Below the pieces are notes generated by a model, which searched no databases, had not been told where the DNA came from, and worked only from the letters and a program-made list of their open reading frames with translations. Shown in pieces: positions 4,502 through 18,343 of a DNA stretch of 18,343 nucleotides (position 1 is the stretch's first letter; each line of letters starts with the position of its first letter). Location: positions 1 through 18,343 of IMG/VR virus record IMGVR_UViG_2541047726_000006; one strand, given 5' to 3'. A program made the position numbers and the translations under genes. The stretch comes from a virus (lineage: Duplodnaviria > Heunggongvirae > Uroviricota > Caudoviricetes).

Positions 4502-4559
4502 AAAAAGGGCGGCAGAGCAGTCACGGAGTAAAACTGATACCGCCAAACGTCACCAGAAA
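4502..4559 (-). ncRNA. dicF: DicF small RNA (ftsZ-targeting sRNA)
   Basis: The reverse complement of 4502-4559 reads TTTCTGGTGACGTTTGGCGGTATCAGTTTTACTCCGTGACTGCTCTGCCGCCCTTTTT, which matches the DicF sequence I recall, including the terminal GC stem and U-run. Ends are approximate because DicF is processed from the operon transcript. Confidence 0.85.
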
Positions 4560-14145: not shown

Positions 14146-14237
14146 CGGTTTGCGGGGAAATCTTAGTTAAGTAGAATAACTGCGGGTGCTTGAGGCTATC
14201 TGTCTCAGGCATGAACACCAAAAGGCAGATAGAGAAA

Positions 14238-14302
14238 AGCCCCAGTTAACATTACGCGTCCTGCAAGACGCTTAACATTAATCTGAGGCCATATCTATGC
14301 GA
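14238..14302 (-). ncRNA. sok: Putative Sok-like antisense RNA, position inferred only
   Basis: By analogy with plasmid R1 hok/sok, the antisense RNA should cover the mok leader and start region. A candidate minus-strand -35 TTGACC is the complement of 14334-14339. Ends are not determined. Confidence 0.25.
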
Positions 14303-14356
14303 CACATAGAGATTAGCCTCTTACGGACCGAAAGGTCAAGGAGAAGCAGGCTATGA
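14297..14356 (+). CDS. mok: Short mok-like leader ORF (19 codons) ending in overlap with the hok start
   Basis: ATG at 14297 preceded by GAGG; encodes MRHIEISLLRTERSRRSRL and stops at TGA 14354-14356, overlapping the hok ATG at 14353 (ATGA). Confidence 0.3.
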   Translation: MRHIEISLLRTERSRRSRL

Positions 14357-16014: not shown

Positions 16015-16374
16015 ATGCTCATAGATTTGGTTTTACCTTACCCGCCGACGGTGAACACTTACTGGCGACGCCGTGGCAGCACATATTTTATCTCGGAGGA
16101 GGGAAAGCGTTATCGCCGGGCTGTGGCGCTTATTGTTCGCCAGCAGCGGCTGAAATTAAGCCTGTCCGGAAGGCTGGCGATAAAGGTGATTGCAGAGCCA
16201 CCGGATAAGCGTCGTCGCGACCTGGACAATATCCTGAAAGCACCGCTGGATGCGCTGACGCATGCGGGAGTGCTCATTGATGACGAGCAGTTTGATGAAA
16301 TCAATATTGTACGTGGTCAGCCAGTATCTGGTGGACGGCTGGGTGTGAAGATTTACAAAATTGAGAGTGAGTGA
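16015..16374 (+). CDS. rusA: RusA Holliday-junction resolvase
   Basis: 119-aa ORF with an AAGAGGTG Shine-Dalgarno. The motif DKRRRDLDNILKAPLDALTHAGVLIDDEQ matches the RusA catalytic region (RRRDLDN). Confidence 0.9.
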   Translation: MLIDLVLPYPPTVNTYWRRRGSTYFISEEGKRYRRAVALIVRQQRLKLSLSGRLAIKVIAEPPDKRRRDLDNILKAPLDALTHAGVLIDDEQFDEINIVRGQPVSGGRLGVKIYKIESE

Positions 16375-16382
16375 GCGTAAAT

Positions 16383-16934
16383 ATGATATATCCGGAAATT
16401 ACAGGCAAAAGCGGCGAACATTTACGCCTGAACACGCTGGAAGCAGTCTGGATCCAGGGGAAATTACGGATGTGGGGGCGGTGGTCGTATATCGGTGGGG
16501 GTAAATCCGGAAATATGTTTAACCGGTTACTGGTTTCGAAAAAGCTGACGAAAACAGCAGTTAATGAGGTTTTACGCAGAATGAAGAAATCCGGGCTGGA
16601 AAAACCGGAACTTGAGGCATTTTTTCGGGATATGACAAGAGGAAAGCAGAAGAGCTGGTTGTCACATTGTACAGACACAGAGGCGTTGATTATTGATCGC
16701 GTTATCAGTGAGGTGCTTGGGGAATATCCCGGGCTAATCAATGTTCTCCGGCAAAGGTACGAAGGACGGGGAATGAGCAAACTGAAAATGGCCGAAAGGT
16801 TAAATGCAGATCATCCTGATTGGTCGTTGGTTACGTGCAGACGCCGAATTGATCAATGGTTGGGGGTATCTGAATTTATGTTATATGCCCCCATGCGCAT
16901 GGCTTTTGTTACAGAGAAAAATGTTGCAAACTGA
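16383..16934 (+). CDS. Putative late-gene antiterminator Q-like protein (by position)
   Basis: 183-aa product from the ATG at 16383; an in-frame GTG at 16371 overlaps the rusA stop. Immediately downstream of rusA and upstream of a short region ending in a strong terminator, as for Q, PR' and tR'. Confidence 0.4.
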   Translation: MIYPEITGKSGEHLRLNTLEAVWIQGKLRMWGRWSYIGGGKSGNMFNRLLVSKKLTKTAVNEVLRRMKKSGLEKPELEAFFRDMTRGKQKSWLSHCTDTEALIIDRVISEVLGEYPGLINVLRQRYEGRGMSKLKMAERLNADHPDWSLVTCRRRIDQWLGVSEFMLYAPMRMAFVTEKNVAN

Positions 16935-17013
16935 TCAATAAACTGCTTCAATCCGTATAAGCTTCGCAAAGCTGTATCGCGAGGCGAAACGCAAGTTTTT
17001 TTCGCACAAGGAA

Positions 17014-17035
17014 GCCACCGGAAGGTGGTTTTTTT
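17014..17035 (+). terminator. Rho-independent terminator, tR'-like
   Basis: GCCACC-GGAA-GGTGG stem followed by TTTTTTT at 17029-17035, about 80 nt downstream of the Q-like stop. Confidence 0.7.
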
Positions 17036-17158
17036 GTGTCCGCGATATACAGTAGCGCAATAAATTCGCTGGTGGTTATTAATACCGTTCTTTCAGCTTG
17101 CTGGCTTTTTCTACAAGAGTTATTGGTGTGTCACGTTAACCGAAAAAGGGAAAAAGAC

Positions 17159-17356
17159 ATGCTAAAACAGCAGGATATGACAGAAACCGCCAGAGTGGTG
17201 TTTAATGAATTAAGCGTTACCGAACCGGCGACAGTCGGGGAGATAGCGCAGAATACTTACCTTTCACGCGAACGCTGCCAGTTAATACTGACCCAGCTGG
17301 TTATGGCGGGTCTGGCAGACTATCAGTTCGGTTGTTACAGACGCCTTCCGCAGTGA
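17159..17356 (+). CDS. Hypothetical small protein (65 aa), possible winged-helix DNA-binding protein
   Basis: ATG at 17159 inside a longer track ORF, with a weak AAGGG Shine-Dalgarno. Product MLKQQDMTETARVVFNELSVTEPATVGEIAQNTYLSRERCQLILTQLVMAGLADYQFGCYRRLPQ. Bracketed by two intrinsic terminators. Confidence 0.45.
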   Translation: MLKQQDMTETARVVFNELSVTEPATVGEIAQNTYLSRERCQLILTQLVMAGLADYQFGCYRRLPQ

Positions 17357-17366
17357 AGGCTTTTTT
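17343..17366 (+). terminator. Rho-independent terminator overlapping the stop codon of the small ORF
   Basis: GCCTTC-CGCAGT-GAAGGC stem followed by TTTTTTATTT. The TGA stop at 17354-17356 lies inside the hairpin. Confidence 0.65.
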
Positions 17367-17383
17367 ATTTGTGGTAAATGGGC

Positions 17384-17414
17384 GGCTGGTGGGTGTTAGG
17401 GGCACCCACCAGCC
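17384..17414. repeat. Perfect 12-bp inverted repeat GGCTGGTGGGTG / CACCCACCAGCC with a 7-nt spacer
   Basis: Read directly at 17384-17395 and 17403-17414. It is not followed by a U-run on either strand and lies about 90 nt upstream of the methyltransferase start. Confidence 0.6.
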
Positions 17415-17506
17415 ATCTGCTCATGCGTTTGGTTCACAAGCAAACCTCAGGCCCACTGCTTTGCGCAAAAGCAGAATGAGCCTATCAGAGACAGGTTTAA
17501 TGATCC

Positions 17507-18343
17507 ATGCTTAATACTGTAAAAATATCCAGTTGTGAGTTAATCAACGCCGACTGCCTGGAATTTATCCGGTCGTTACCCGAAAATTCTGTTGACCTGA
17601 TAGTCACGGACCCGCCGTACTTTAAAGTGAAGCCTGAGGGCTGGGATAACCAGTGGAAGGGCGACGATGATTACCTGAAGTGGCTGGACCAGTGTCTGGC
17701 GCAGTTCTGGCGGGTGCTGAAACCTGCCGGAAGTCTTTACCTGTTCTGTGGTCATCGCCTGGCATCTGATATCGAAATCATGATGCGTGAACGCTTCAGT
17801 GTGCTGAACCATATTATCTGGGCGAAGCCGTCCGGATGCTGGAACGGATGCAACAAGGAAAGCCTGCGGGCGTATTTCCCCGCCACAGAGCGCATTCTGT
17901 TCGCGGAACATTATCAGGGGCCGTATCGTCCGAAAGATGCCGGGTATGAGGCGAAGGGCAGGGCACTGAAACAGCATGTGATGGCCCCGCTGATTTCTTA
18001 CTTTCGTGATGCGCGCGCGGCCCTGGGGATAACGGCAAAACAGATTGCAGATGCCACAGGAAAGAAAAACATGGTGTCGCACTGGTTCAGTGCCAGTCAG
18101 TGGCAGCTACCGAACGAAAGCGATTATCTGAAATTACAGTCGCTGTTTGCCCGGGTGGCAGAAGAGAAACATCAGCGGGGAGAACTGGAAAAGTCCCATT
18201 ACCAACTGGTCAGCACATACAGTGAGCTGAACCGGCAGTATACGGAACTGCAGAGTGAATATAAGCATCTGCGGCGGTATTTTGGCGTGACGGCGCAGGT
18301 GCCGTACACGGATGTGTGGACGCATAAACCGGTGCAGTACTAT
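17507..18343 (+). CDS. DNA methyltransferase (N6-adenine/N4-cytosine type, DPPY motif), 3'-truncated by the window end
   Basis: Open frame from the ATG at 17507 to the window end, not in the ORF track because it has no stop. N-terminus MLNTVKISSCELINADCLEFIRSLPENSVDLIVTDPPYF carries catalytic motif IV near the N-terminus, as in beta-class MTases. No adjacent restriction endonuclease is visible. Confidence 0.85.
   Translation, partial: MLNTVKISSCELINADCLEFIRSLPENSVDLIVTDPPYFKVKPEGWDNQWKGDDDYLKWLDQCLAQFWRVLKPAGSLYLFCGHRLASDIEIMMRERFSVLNHIIWAKPSGCWNGCNKESLRAYFPATERILFAEHYQGPYRPKDAGYEAKGRALKQHVMAPLISYFRDARAALGITAKQIADATGKKNMVSHWFSASQWQLPNESDYLKLQSLFARVAEEKHQRGELEKSHYQLVSTYSELNRQYTELQSEYKHLRRYFGVTAQVPYTDVWTHKPVQYY

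Follow-up and report, generated by a model that had tools for sequence, protein, structure and literature searches.

A conserved structured mRNA leader precedes an orphan adenine methyltransferase gene in the late operon of a lambdoid prophage

What keeps a DNA methyltransferase that is toxic to the host silent in a lysogen? To our knowledge, the mechanism that silences such methylases in lysogens has so far only been guessed at. The question is raised by the 18,343-nucleotide viral sequence studied here (the window, meaning the whole stretch of DNA analysed), which ends inside a methylase gene preceded by a small open reading frame (ORF), two terminators and a perfect 12-bp inverted repeat (Table 1). 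A sequence-only reading of this region had offered two interpretations, a controller-protein, operator and methylase unit or an anti-restriction module. We consider it probable that the region is a late-operon cassette in which a structured leader locks the methylase, Q-dependent lytic growth releases it and the small protein has an accessory role.

Table 1. Features of the cassette and its control region, in window coordinates; the two strands of a helix are joined by 'with'.
Feature	Position	Strand	Basis or detail
Q-like late antiterminator gene (DUF1133 type)	16371-16934	+	Pfam DUF1133 E = 2.9e-105, Phage_antitermQ E = 2.6e-7
Candidate late promoter pR'	16922-16950	+	-35 TTGCAA 16922-16927, 17-nt spacer, -10 TTCAAT 16945-16950; inferred only
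tR'-like intrinsic terminator	17004-17039	+	Sequence and fold
Conserved block upstream of small ORF	17097-17133	+	CTTGCTG-N13-(C/A)AGAGTTAYNTGTGTGTCA
Small winged-helix protein gene, 65 aa	17159-17356	+	ATG ORF, codon-position bias, AlphaFold2; hallmark motif RCQLILTQLVMAGL
Second intrinsic terminator t2	17343-17370	+	Terminator scan; GCCTTC-CGCAGT-GAAGGC plus TTTTTTATTT
Structured mRNA leader of methylase, ~130 nt	17378-17506	+	RNAalifold, pair counts, covariance model
P0	17378-17383 with 17419-17424	+	Leader helix
P1 ('palindrome')	17384-17395 with 17403-17414	+	Leader helix
P2, abutting AUG	about 17431-17441 with about 17495-17505	+	Leader helix
P3	17450-17453 with 17478-17482	+	Leader helix
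P4	17456-17462 with 17468-17474	+	Leader helix
Possible alternative long-range pairing	17379-17455	+	UGGGC 17379-17383 with GCCCA 17451-17455; tentative
M.EcoGI/GII-family non-specific N6-adenine DNA methyltransferase gene	17507-18343	+	279 of 349 codons; cut by window end

The cassette occupies the first accessory position in the late operon of a Qin-like lambdoid prophage. The gene upstream belongs to PHROG 753 ('anti-termination protein Q-like'), and it is followed, as in lambdoid late operons, by a terminator and then by holin, lysozyme and terminase genes, the downstream genes being read in the 99.9% identical chromosome L001. The tR'-like terminator noticed from the sequence is present downstream of the Q-like gene. 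Its stem, CCACC/GGTGG at 17015-17028, is followed by seven T residues, as RNA it forms a 16-bp hairpin, and the stretch 16955-17040 folds at -36.6 kcal/mol (z = -6.4). A strong terminator stands at the tR' position in all 29 related loci aligned. The candidate pR' aligns with TTGAAA/GATAAT of a Salmonella locus (L086). A promoter scan of 16700-18343 that required at least 9 of 12 matches reported nothing, and missed this candidate because it matches the consensus at only 8 of 12 positions. Since the scan was empty, we infer the assignments of pR' and of the small-ORF promoter, as we do the placement of a qut site in the window. Similarity to Stx phages with other Q genes starts only past the tR'-like terminator, which fits a joint transfer of pR', qut and tR' with Q. 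The Q-position gene preceding the cassette is of three kinds: DUF1133 here, PF06323 (Phage_antiter_Q) in Klebsiella and a 207-aa protein without Pfam assignment in Salmonella. The position is that of lambdoid late operons (Q, pR', tR'), and a short transcript of ~80 nt from pR' to tR' is expected, like lambda 6S RNA or StxS. The arrangement differs in having a second terminator and then a putative translation-blocking leader before the first long gene. In Stx phages, the accessory slot between Q and the lysis genes holds the stx genes (PMC6266700, PMC7547250); these papers on Stx-phage pR' and StxS mention neither the methylase nor the small ORF nor the leader.

The methylase starts at ATG 17507, encodes DPPY at residues 35-38 and, as the sequence-only reading had noted, runs off the end of the window, after 279 stop-free codons. 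The full-length copy in L001 has 349 aa, matches Pfam N6_N4_Mtase over residues 29-340 (E = 5.4e-45) and carries FMGSG at residues 310-314, outside the window, which gives the beta-class motif order. By sequence similarity, the enzyme is a member of the M.EcoGI/M.EcoGII family: it is identical to M.EcoGII at 335 of 350 aligned positions (96%), a count in which a few mismatches may be reading errors of the machine-read supplement that supplied the M.EcoGII sequence. M.EcoGI and M.EcoGII, which are identical to each other at 333 of 349 positions, come from prophages of E. coli O104:H4 C227-11 (PMC5778455). They share with the full copy its length, its order of DPPY motif, target-recognition domain and FxGxG motif, and its prophage location, and the enzyme shows no material difference from them. 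The published work used the cloned coding sequence, and the upstream small ORF, terminators and leader are undescribed in Murray et al. 2018 (PMC5778455), where the word 'upstream' occurs 0 times in the text. Murray et al. 2018 (PMC5778455) found M.EcoGII to lack sequence specificity, to stay silent in the lysogen and to be harmful on expression, and by analogy with this literature the window copy would methylate adenine in any context and be silent in the lysogen. The distant homologues ARM81ld_p56 and PhiOS31_p25 are non-specific by experiment. Phage 1720a-02, named as the carrier of a very similar enzyme (PMC5778455), is also the best phage DNA match here (95.8%). The gene family occurs in roughly half of the complete E. 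coli genomes (2564/5426).

Downstream of the methylase, L001 encodes tRNA-Ile, tRNA-Arg, a DUF3927 gene, iraM (minus strand), holin and lysozyme. The tRNA genes and lysis cassette also follow in L002, and HicAB or holin genes follow in Klebsiella and Salmonella loci. We found no restriction endonuclease in the window or after the methylase in L001. The view of the gene as an orphan methylase thus holds when the sequence is extended through L001, where tRNA and then lysis genes appear, and the anti-restriction reading gains from the affiliation with the anti-restriction-type M.EcoGII-like family.

The 65-aa ORF is a real gene with a conserved ATG. Across 14 genera-level loci, differences fall at the three codon positions in the ratio 129:82:438. 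The synonymous count was taken from species-level loci, and 80 viral loci (79 at 100% and one at 98% protein identity) were discarded because a count on loci selected for near-100% protein identity is circular. A longer reading of 106 aa from GTG 17036, where the sequence-only reading had set the start of its region, was rejected, as its 41-codon extension is not conserved and carries indels. The suspicion of a helix-rich, possibly DNA-binding protein agrees with the AlphaFold2 model, which predicts a winged helix (H1-S-H2-H3-wing, pLDDT 89.9). Matches to Pfam are to winged-helix families only, all sub-threshold (TrmB, E = 0.0026), and fold searches returned only generic winged helices (IclR, MarR, Zalpha, SelB and O-methyltransferase N-terminal domains); no Zalpha signature residues were seen by eye. 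The protein belongs to PHROG 331, of unknown function, and its family is narrow, with 84 representatives among 1.84 billion. Domain fusions are essentially absent from the family, in which four very long proteins matched only via short stretches and the members are otherwise stand-alone, of 18-114 aa. Comparison by hhalign with the small ORFs upstream of related methylases (the 89-aa L131 and 63-71-aa L187 types) gave probabilities of 0.3 and 0.5, and we claim no homology to them.

The ORF is followed, as had been proposed, by its own terminator (t2), and its TGA stop falls within the t2 hairpin. A terminator also stands directly 5' of the leader in loci that lack the small ORF (L126, L140, phiKO2 and phiARM81ld). 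Upstream of the ORF lies a block that accompanies it, in conserved form, throughout the range from E. coli to Proteus and Plesiomonas, and that was not seen in two inspected loci without the ORF. The block has an invariant core (CAGAGTTA) and carries TTGCTG and TAYNTG hexamers at a constant 17-nt spacing; judging from its sequence it could be a weak promoter or a binding site. Promoter-like block, ORF and terminator together form a classic moron layout, the block travels with the ORF, and the putative recognition helix of the protein, RCQLILTQL, is invariant, like the block core. The small ORF might then encode a lysogen-expressed transcription factor for prophage or host genes and be a mere neighbour of the methylase. 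However, an independent regulator would be expected in other contexts, whereas of 34 species-level loci retrieved with the small protein as the only query, 32 have the methylase at fixed spacing; of the two exceptions, L108 is cut by the locus end and L105 has a partial small-ORF match with no methylase found. The -10-like hexamer is also poor, lacking the critical final T, and the promoter scan was empty. We consider an independent transcription factor rather unlikely, and conclude that the link between small ORF and methylase is genuine.

Between t2 and the methylase lies a structured mRNA leader whose helices show covariation. In one alignment (A4), RNAalifold and pair counts gave 97% of cells paired and nine pairs with compensatory changes; in another (A7), made of 70 distinct sequences, 94.9% of cells are paired and 25 of the 32 pairs have compensatory changes. 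None of 500 shuffles of A7 was as good, and slid controls were 30-44% paired. A covariance model matches the leader with 121 bits (17367-17512). Between genera, the leader is 80-83% identical, compared with 40-59% at the third codon positions of the methylase (40-46% in five of six loci), and several of its unpaired stretches (RUGGGC, GCCCAY and AGCCUAUCA) are nearly invariant. Folding of single sequences on both strands did not discriminate between them (z = -3.6 vs -4.3). The strand call rests on the asymmetry across homologues, in which G·U cells outnumber A·C cells by 73 to 12 (hand tally of per-pair tables), an excess indicating that the folded RNA is the plus strand.

A leader peptide starting from the conserved AUG/GUG of RUGGGC was ruled out, as the frame has 7 codons in Salmonella L092 and 33 here, and the changes in P1 ignore codon structure. 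At the gathering threshold, Rfam 15 identified only sok and DicF in the whole window, both outside the leader. With E up to 10, positions 16850-17560 yielded sub-threshold chance matches, and the best of these, P26, was rejected as the family of the leader because its score of 23 bits, below the cut-off of 36, reflects a generic hairpin. Eight diverse loci searched with Rfam 15 at E up to 0.1 yielded nothing. We suggest the leader as a candidate new cis-regulatory RNA family without Rfam match.

The 12-bp 'palindrome' is helix P1 of this leader and not a protein-binding operator. Its arms, GGCTGGTGGGTG and CACCCACCAGCC, are complementary at all 12 positions around a 7-nt loop, as the sequence-only reading had reported, and form (17384-17414) the longest perfect inverted repeat in the window, in which only one further perfect repeat reaches 10 nt; the chance expectation for such a repeat is ~0.01. 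In about 70% of the distinct E. coli copies, the arms match at 10 of 12 positions as DNA and at 12 of 12 as RNA, via two G·U pairs, and in other genera they are replaced by unrelated complementary sequences. Judged from these alignments, the shape of P1 is under selection and its sequence is not.

These observations bear on the model of a controller protein, in which the small protein would bind the palindrome as a DNA operator and so control methylase transcription. The locus does resemble restriction-modification systems with C proteins, in that a small gene of HTH type adjoins the methylase gene and an inverted repeat lies nearby. The predicted fold is of a DNA-binding type, the small protein almost never occurs without the methylase, and the repeat in the window is perfect and non-random. 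Yet the endonuclease is absent, the protein is a predicted winged helix where C proteins are of the Xre type, and the repeat, unlike a C-box, lies downstream of the small gene rather than upstream, forms a helix in RNA and lacks sequence conservation. As part of the leader it also occurs without the small ORF, in 61 of 166 loci, and P1 varies while the small protein is near-constant: in the Proteus loci L107 and L109 the P1 stems are clearly different and the small proteins differ at about 6 of 65 residues (hand count). Conserved complementarity without conserved sequence, the 10/12 match of most E. coli repeats as DNA and the marked preponderance of G·U over A·C all point to RNA. The controller-protein and operator layout is therefore not borne out, and we regard this model as extremely unlikely.

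Helix P2 pairs with roughly 12 nt directly 5' of the methylase AUG, ending 1-2 nt short of it. It is 86-91% paired in the 70 sequences, with changes on both sides in seven of eight pairs, such as AAG/CUU in E. coli to GGA/UCY in Proteus; the window copy has one U·U mismatch and one wobble pair. Most loci have no Shine-Dalgarno sequence. By sequestering the start region, P2 may repress translation of the methylase. The alternative long-range pairing of UGGGC with GCCCA could not coexist with P0 or P3. With so little variation in either segment, this pairing rests on three to five compensatory events, including AUGAGC/GCUCAC in Mixta, CGUGGC/GCCACG in phiARM81ld and cases of GUGGGC/GCCCAC. Forcing the alternative fold costs only 1.9 kcal/mol relative to the minimum-energy fold of the window copy, and in phiKO2 the alternative is the fold of lowest energy. 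The pre-AUG bases are then largely unpaired in the Salmonella, Proteus and phiKO2 leaders, while part of them stays paired in the window copy. We tentatively raise the idea, possible at a low probability, that the leader represents a new class of two-state RNA switch that licenses methylase translation after lytic commitment. RUGGGC would pair either within P0, in a closed state that sequesters the start site, or with GCCCAY, in an open state. The choice might be set by a small ligand, by the folding path under Q-modified polymerase or by a factor acting in trans, for which the winged-helix protein, a Com-like protein and the methylase itself are candidates.

The leader is carried by lambdoid, N15-like and VHML-like phages of Enterobacterales, Vibrio and Aeromonas. 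A scan with a pattern for the RNA alone gave 80 loci, and in 75 of them an EcoGII-like methylase follows within 0-120 nt. Of the other five, two lie at contig ends, one is a deletion derivative, one has a disrupted gene and one is a chance match. The phiKO2 leader has an annotated late promoter and terminator before it and the methylase after it. In the Aeromonas phage phiARM81ld, a Com-like zinc-ribbon gene (27.9 bits against a cut-off of 22.9) lies between leader and methylase and overlaps the methylase start, and the same P2 strand covers the AUG of this Com-like gene. This distribution bears on whether the motif could instead be a stand-alone small RNA, or a riboswitch that senses a ligand and acts chiefly on something other than methylase translation. 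The nearly invariant unpaired stretches recall those of ligand- or protein-binding RNAs, and two competing folds are close in energy. Against this, the motif in every case runs up to the start codon of the gene that follows, the pre-AUG bases are paired to its 3' strand, it has no terminator at its 3' end, and it was found only before EcoGII-like methylases or a Com-like gene overlapping one, a gene context that points to no ligand. We consider such a role very unlikely.

The phiARM81ld arrangement recalls Mu, where mom, like other Com-linked non-specific adenine methylases, is expressed late, is toxic and is controlled at the level of translation (Drozdz et al. 2012, PMC3299994, and the Hattman review cited there); FluMu and Pnm1 also have com-like/non-specific adenine methylase operons (PMC3299994). 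As in Mu com-mom, a small gene lies directly upstream of a DNA-modification enzyme that would be broadly protective, toxic, silent in lysogens and made late, and an mRNA structure lies over the start of the modification gene, here P2, which would repress its translation. The small protein might then act as Com does on the mom stem, binding the leader RNA and opening P2. Its gene, encoding 63-69 aa, directly precedes a toxic DNA-modification gene with a sequestered start region, it co-occurs strictly with the methylase, a true Com-like gene fills the equivalent slot in phiARM81ld, and Com-like genes precede other non-specific adenine methylases. However, the leader is common without the small ORF, and nine loci have the small ORF with a different, short leader. 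Neither therefore needs the other, and the structured leader is not the sole solution in this methylase family. The small protein is a predicted winged helix without a Zn_ribbon_Com match, in contrast to the zinc ribbon of Com, and the stem and loop of P1 change freely against a constant protein. Its gene does not overlap the methylase, a terminator lies between them, and the leader has several helices over ~130 nt and is unrelated to Mu in sequence. Transcription here would be controlled by lambdoid Q antitermination, compared with C, Dam and OxyR in Mu. A Com-like activity of the small protein is thus unlikely.

By analogy with Mu com/mom, a translational lock exerted by the leader itself is the most likely arrangement, and the leader probably keeps the toxic methylase untranslated until the lytic phase. 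In the lysogen, transcripts from the late promoter would stop at tR' or, failing that, at t2. In any RNA that reads through, P2, with P3 and P4 closing it, would engage the ~12 bases 5' of the AUG, and this sequestration of the start region would leave the host-toxic methylase untranslated. In lytic growth, Q would be made and RNA polymerase would pass both terminators, after which the leader may be opened, or overwhelmed by transcript abundance. One possible switch is that the 5' RUGGGC leaves P0 and pairs with the invariant GCCCAY, breaking P3 and P2. Methylase made late would hypermethylate progeny DNA and so might protect it from restriction in the next host. The small winged-helix protein would serve the methylase as an accessory partner and does not read the sequence of P1.

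A conserved leader that masks the start codon region would provide a concrete, testable answer to how the methylase is silenced in lysogens, and would extend the com/mom logic of Mu to lambdoid, N15-like and VHML-like phages. The leader also comes with a ready 70-sequence alignment as a candidate cis-regulatory RNA family, and the analysis flags a narrow family of small winged-helix proteins that accompanies the methylase. M.EcoGII is a widely used laboratory enzyme, and its gene family is present in many Stx phages directly upstream of tRNA and stx genes. The identical cassette of small ORF, leader and methylase separates Q from the tRNA/stx genes in Stx2a, Stx2c, Stx2d and Stx2e (phiP27) phages, so that effects on read-through or RNA stability could bear on toxin expression.

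The sequence in the window is that of a Qin-like E. coli lambdoid prophage, with the DicF RNA and a sok antitoxin RNA, both hallmarks of Qin-type cryptic prophages, followed by DUF968, RusA and a DUF1133/Q-like antiterminator gene. A strong tR'-like terminator, a second terminator and a DPPY methylase gene lie downstream, as the sequence-only reading had described. In a chromosome that is 99.9% identical over this region, the part past the window end encodes a 349-aa methylase, tRNA-Ile, tRNA-Arg, iraM, holin, lysozyme and terminase; no restriction endonuclease was found there, in agreement with the earlier reading. The segment is carried by 2564 of 5426 complete E. coli genomes and is also found in Stx2a, Stx2c, Stx2d and Stx2e phages, where the likeness starts just 3' of the terminator because the Q genes of those phages differ. 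The cassette thus occupies the accessory-gene slot heading the late operon, the slot taken by stx genes in Stx phages. The gene at the Q position varies among phages with the small ORF: DUF1133 in the window, PF06323 in Klebsiella and a protein without Pfam assignment in Salmonella.

Features of the methylase cassette, its prophage setting and related loci (window coordinates unless a locus is named)
Feature	Position	Strand	Details
DicF RNA	4507-4558	-	76.7 bits
sok antitoxin RNA	14184-14355	+	106.7 bits; adjoins hokD
Q-like antiterminator gene (DUF1133)	16371-16934	+	
Candidate pR' late promoter (inferred)	16922-16950		TTGCAA, 17 nt, TTCAAT; overlaps Q end
tR'-like intrinsic terminator	17015-17028		Stem CCACC/GGTGG, then T7; as RNA extends to 17004-17039
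Conserved non-coding block	17097-17133		CTTGCTG-N13-CAGAGTTAYNTGTGTG, also written CTTGCTG-N13-(C/A)AGAGTTAYNTGTGTGTCA; 25-60 nt 5' of small ORF
Small ORF (65 aa)	17159-17356		
Second terminator	17343-17370		Overlaps small-ORF stop codon
Helix P0			AUGGGC with GCUCAU
Helix P1 (inverted repeat)	17384-17395/17403-17414		GGCTGGTGGGTG/CACCCACCAGCC, perfect
Helix P2 (long-range)			GGUCA..AAGC with GCUU..UGAUC; 3' strand stops 1-2 nt short of AUG
Helix P3			
Helix P4	17456-17474		Second small palindrome
Conserved GATC (Dam) site	17501-17506		CTGATCCATG; most relatives CTGATCTATG
Methylase	from 17507		ATG, then 279 open codons up to window end; DPPY = residues 35-38
Other upstream small ORF, L131	1068-1337		
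Other upstream small ORF, L187	1117-1332		
Other upstream small ORF, L219	10358-10585		

A perfect 12-bp inverted repeat upstream of the methylase had been read as possibly the operator of a controller protein. The repeat is present and is the longest perfect one within the 18.3-kb window, but Salmonella (GACTGGCAGGGTG/CACCCTGCCAGCC), Proteus (GACTGTAAAAGTG/CACCTTTACAGTC) and a phiKO2-like phage (GGTGTGCATGATG/CATCATGCACACC) have different arms that are again complementary, and its loop varies freely. Of 56 distinct sequences of E. coli type, approximately 70% have CACCTGCCAGCC as the right arm, a version that matches at 10 of 12 positions as a DNA palindrome and at 12 of 12 as RNA, via two G·U pairs. 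Pairing is conserved and sequence is not; judged by this comparison, the palindrome is an RNA helix (P1) rather than an operator.

The stretch from the second terminator to the methylase AUG is unusually well conserved, with 80-83% identity between genera against only 40-59% at the third codon positions of the methylase (six loci compared, five of them at 40-46%). RNAalifold analysis of 31 species-level sequences yielded a consensus fold of five helices, P0 to P4. In an independent MAFFT alignment of these sequences 97% of cells are paired and nine pairs have changes on both sides. A wider alignment of 70 distinct sequences, which was fitted to the covariance model and so favours the structure, agrees with the independent one: 94.9% of cells are paired, with changes on both sides in 25 of 32 pairs. 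Sequence counts should not be read as numbers of independent evolutionary events. None of 500 shuffles was as good, and sliding the 3' partners left pairing at 30-44%. There are 73 G·U cells against 12 A·C cells (manual tally from the 31-sequence alignment tables), therefore the folded strand is the + strand as RNA. The covariance model built from the leader found the motif directly before the methylase in 57 of 80 methylase-anchored viral loci; like the other loci studied, these come from collections in which enteric bacteria predominate. No Rfam family matches the leader, and the RNA itself appears to be undescribed. The Dam site just 5' of the methylase AUG lies in the 3' strand of P2, and the 5' strand contains another GATC in Proteus-type leaders. 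Transcription of Mu mom is Dam-dependent.

The enzyme downstream is already known. A full-length copy is identical to M.EcoGII at 335 of 350 aligned positions (96%), some mismatches possibly being reading errors in the machine-read supplement that supplied the reference. M.EcoGII methylates adenine regardless of the surrounding sequence; the lysogen does not express it, and its constitutive expression is harmful. Its authors suggested that it is turned on as the prophage excises (PMC5778455). Non-specificity has also been shown by experiment for ARM81ld_p56 and PhiOS31_p25, both distant homologues. In Klebsiella loci (L083) the methylase is directly followed by a hicAB pair.

Scanning viral contigs with a pattern from the RNA alone returned 80 loci, 75 of which have an EcoGII-like methylase start 0-120 nt 3' of the leader. 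The remaining five comprise two contig-end cuts, a disrupted methylase, a match attributed to chance, which the covariance model fails to recover, and a deletion derivative (L242, 5035-5420) that has kept the small ORF and leader and lost the methylase, with a HicB-like gene next on the opposite strand. This near-exclusive link to EcoGII-like methylases in lambdoid, N15-like and VHML-like phages appears to be undescribed. Nine loci (L150, 1213-1500, and eight similar) carry the small ORF and methylase with a different short leader, a spacer of approximately 90 nt with a terminator-like hairpin and none of P0-P4.

The small gene had been given a start at 17036, the GTG of a 106-aa mechanical ORF whose 41-codon extension is not conserved; the 65-aa ATG ORF within it is the conserved gene. 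Differences at codon positions 1, 2 and 3 (129:82:438 across 14 genus-level loci not selected for protein identity) indicate a real gene. The family is narrow, with 84 representatives among 1.84 billion, and its members are small, stand-alone proteins, 18-114 aa in length; the only very long matches, four proteins, involve short stretches. An EcoGII-like methylase starts 320-356 nt after the small-ORF start in 32 of 34 species-representative loci, which were retrieved by the small protein alone and range from E. coli to Proteus, Providencia and Plesiomonas. Of the remaining two, one is truncated at the locus end and the second (L105) has a partial small-ORF match and no methylase match. The small protein depends strictly on the methylase, which favours an accessory or regulatory role over an independent one. 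The small winged-helix family that accompanies the leader in Enterobacterales appears to be undescribed.

The small protein is probably not the reader of P1, because P1 stem and loop are unlike in two Proteus loci (L107 and L109) whose small proteins are alike at all but about 6 of 65 residues (hand count), and because the leader does without the small protein in many phages. The ORF (motif CQLILTQL) ends at most 80 nt 5' of the leader in approximately 100 of 166 leader-bearing loci, and 61 have no ORF at that position. The conserved block upstream accompanies the small ORF wherever it occurs, from E. coli to Plesiomonas, and contains TTGCTG and TAYNTG hexamers at a constant spacing of 17 nt. 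It could be a weak promoter or, alternatively, the small protein's own binding site. Other EcoGII-like methylase clades have upstream small ORFs of 63-89 aa that fall into at least three further sequence types and look helix-rich, in some cases winged-helix-like; hhalign detected no homology between the small protein of the window and two of these types (L131 and L187).

The small-ORF stop codon (17354-17356) lies within the hairpin of the second terminator (17343-17360). It falls in the loop in Klebsiella, and in Salmonella (L086) the ORF runs through the hairpin and ends 3 nt 5' of the leader's AUGGGC. Given this placement, a ribosome completing the small ORF could prevent termination or sway leader folding. 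The terminator directly 5' of the leader is retained even in loci without the small ORF, and the phiKO2 record has an annotated late promoter, terminator, leader and methylase in that order.

The anatomy, family assignment, RNA structure and linkage patterns found here, taken with the published non-specificity, lysogen silence and toxicity, suggest the following mechanism. Late transcripts would begin at the candidate pR' and, without Q, would halt at tR' or, failing that, at the second terminator. RNA that escapes would fold such that P2 masks the methylase start region, where most copies lack a Shine-Dalgarno sequence. With Q, polymerase would pass the terminators and the methylase would be made late, when it may shield progeny DNA from restriction. 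Leader opening may use a second pairing, tentatively between the 5' RUGGGC and an invariant GCCCAY between P3 and P4. The segments co-vary (AUGAGC/GCUCAC in Mixta, CGUGGC/GCCACG in phiARM81ld and several GUGGGC/GCCCAC cases), with weak statistics because both hardly vary. Imposed on the window sequence, this pairing has a cost of only 1.9 kcal/mol, and it is the minimum-energy fold in phiKO2. It frees most pre-AUG bases in Salmonella, Proteus and phiKO2 leaders; part of the stretch remains paired in the window.

The cassette lacks all three defining features of C-protein restriction-modification systems, so the proposed controller-protein unit does not hold. Its regulatory logic resembles that of Mu com/mom and the com-like/non-specific methylase operons of FluMu and Pnm1 (PMC3299994), but it lacks the Com zinc ribbon and is not a member of that family. 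In Aeromonas phage phiARM81ld (L203, 1362-1577) the leader and an EcoGII-like methylase are separated by a Com-like zinc-ribbon gene (Pfam Zn_ribbon_Com, 27.9 bits; cut-off 22.9), which overlaps the methylase start and has its own AUG within the P2 3' strand. A weak relative was seen in L198.

If the candidate pR' is real, a short, terminated RNA of approximately 80 nt (16955-17039) would be expected in the lysogen, comparable to lambda 6S RNA and to StxS, the Hfq-binding sRNA of Stx phages. This stretch holds a conserved AAGCTTCGCAAAGCT hairpin, seen in the Salmonella locus L086 as well.
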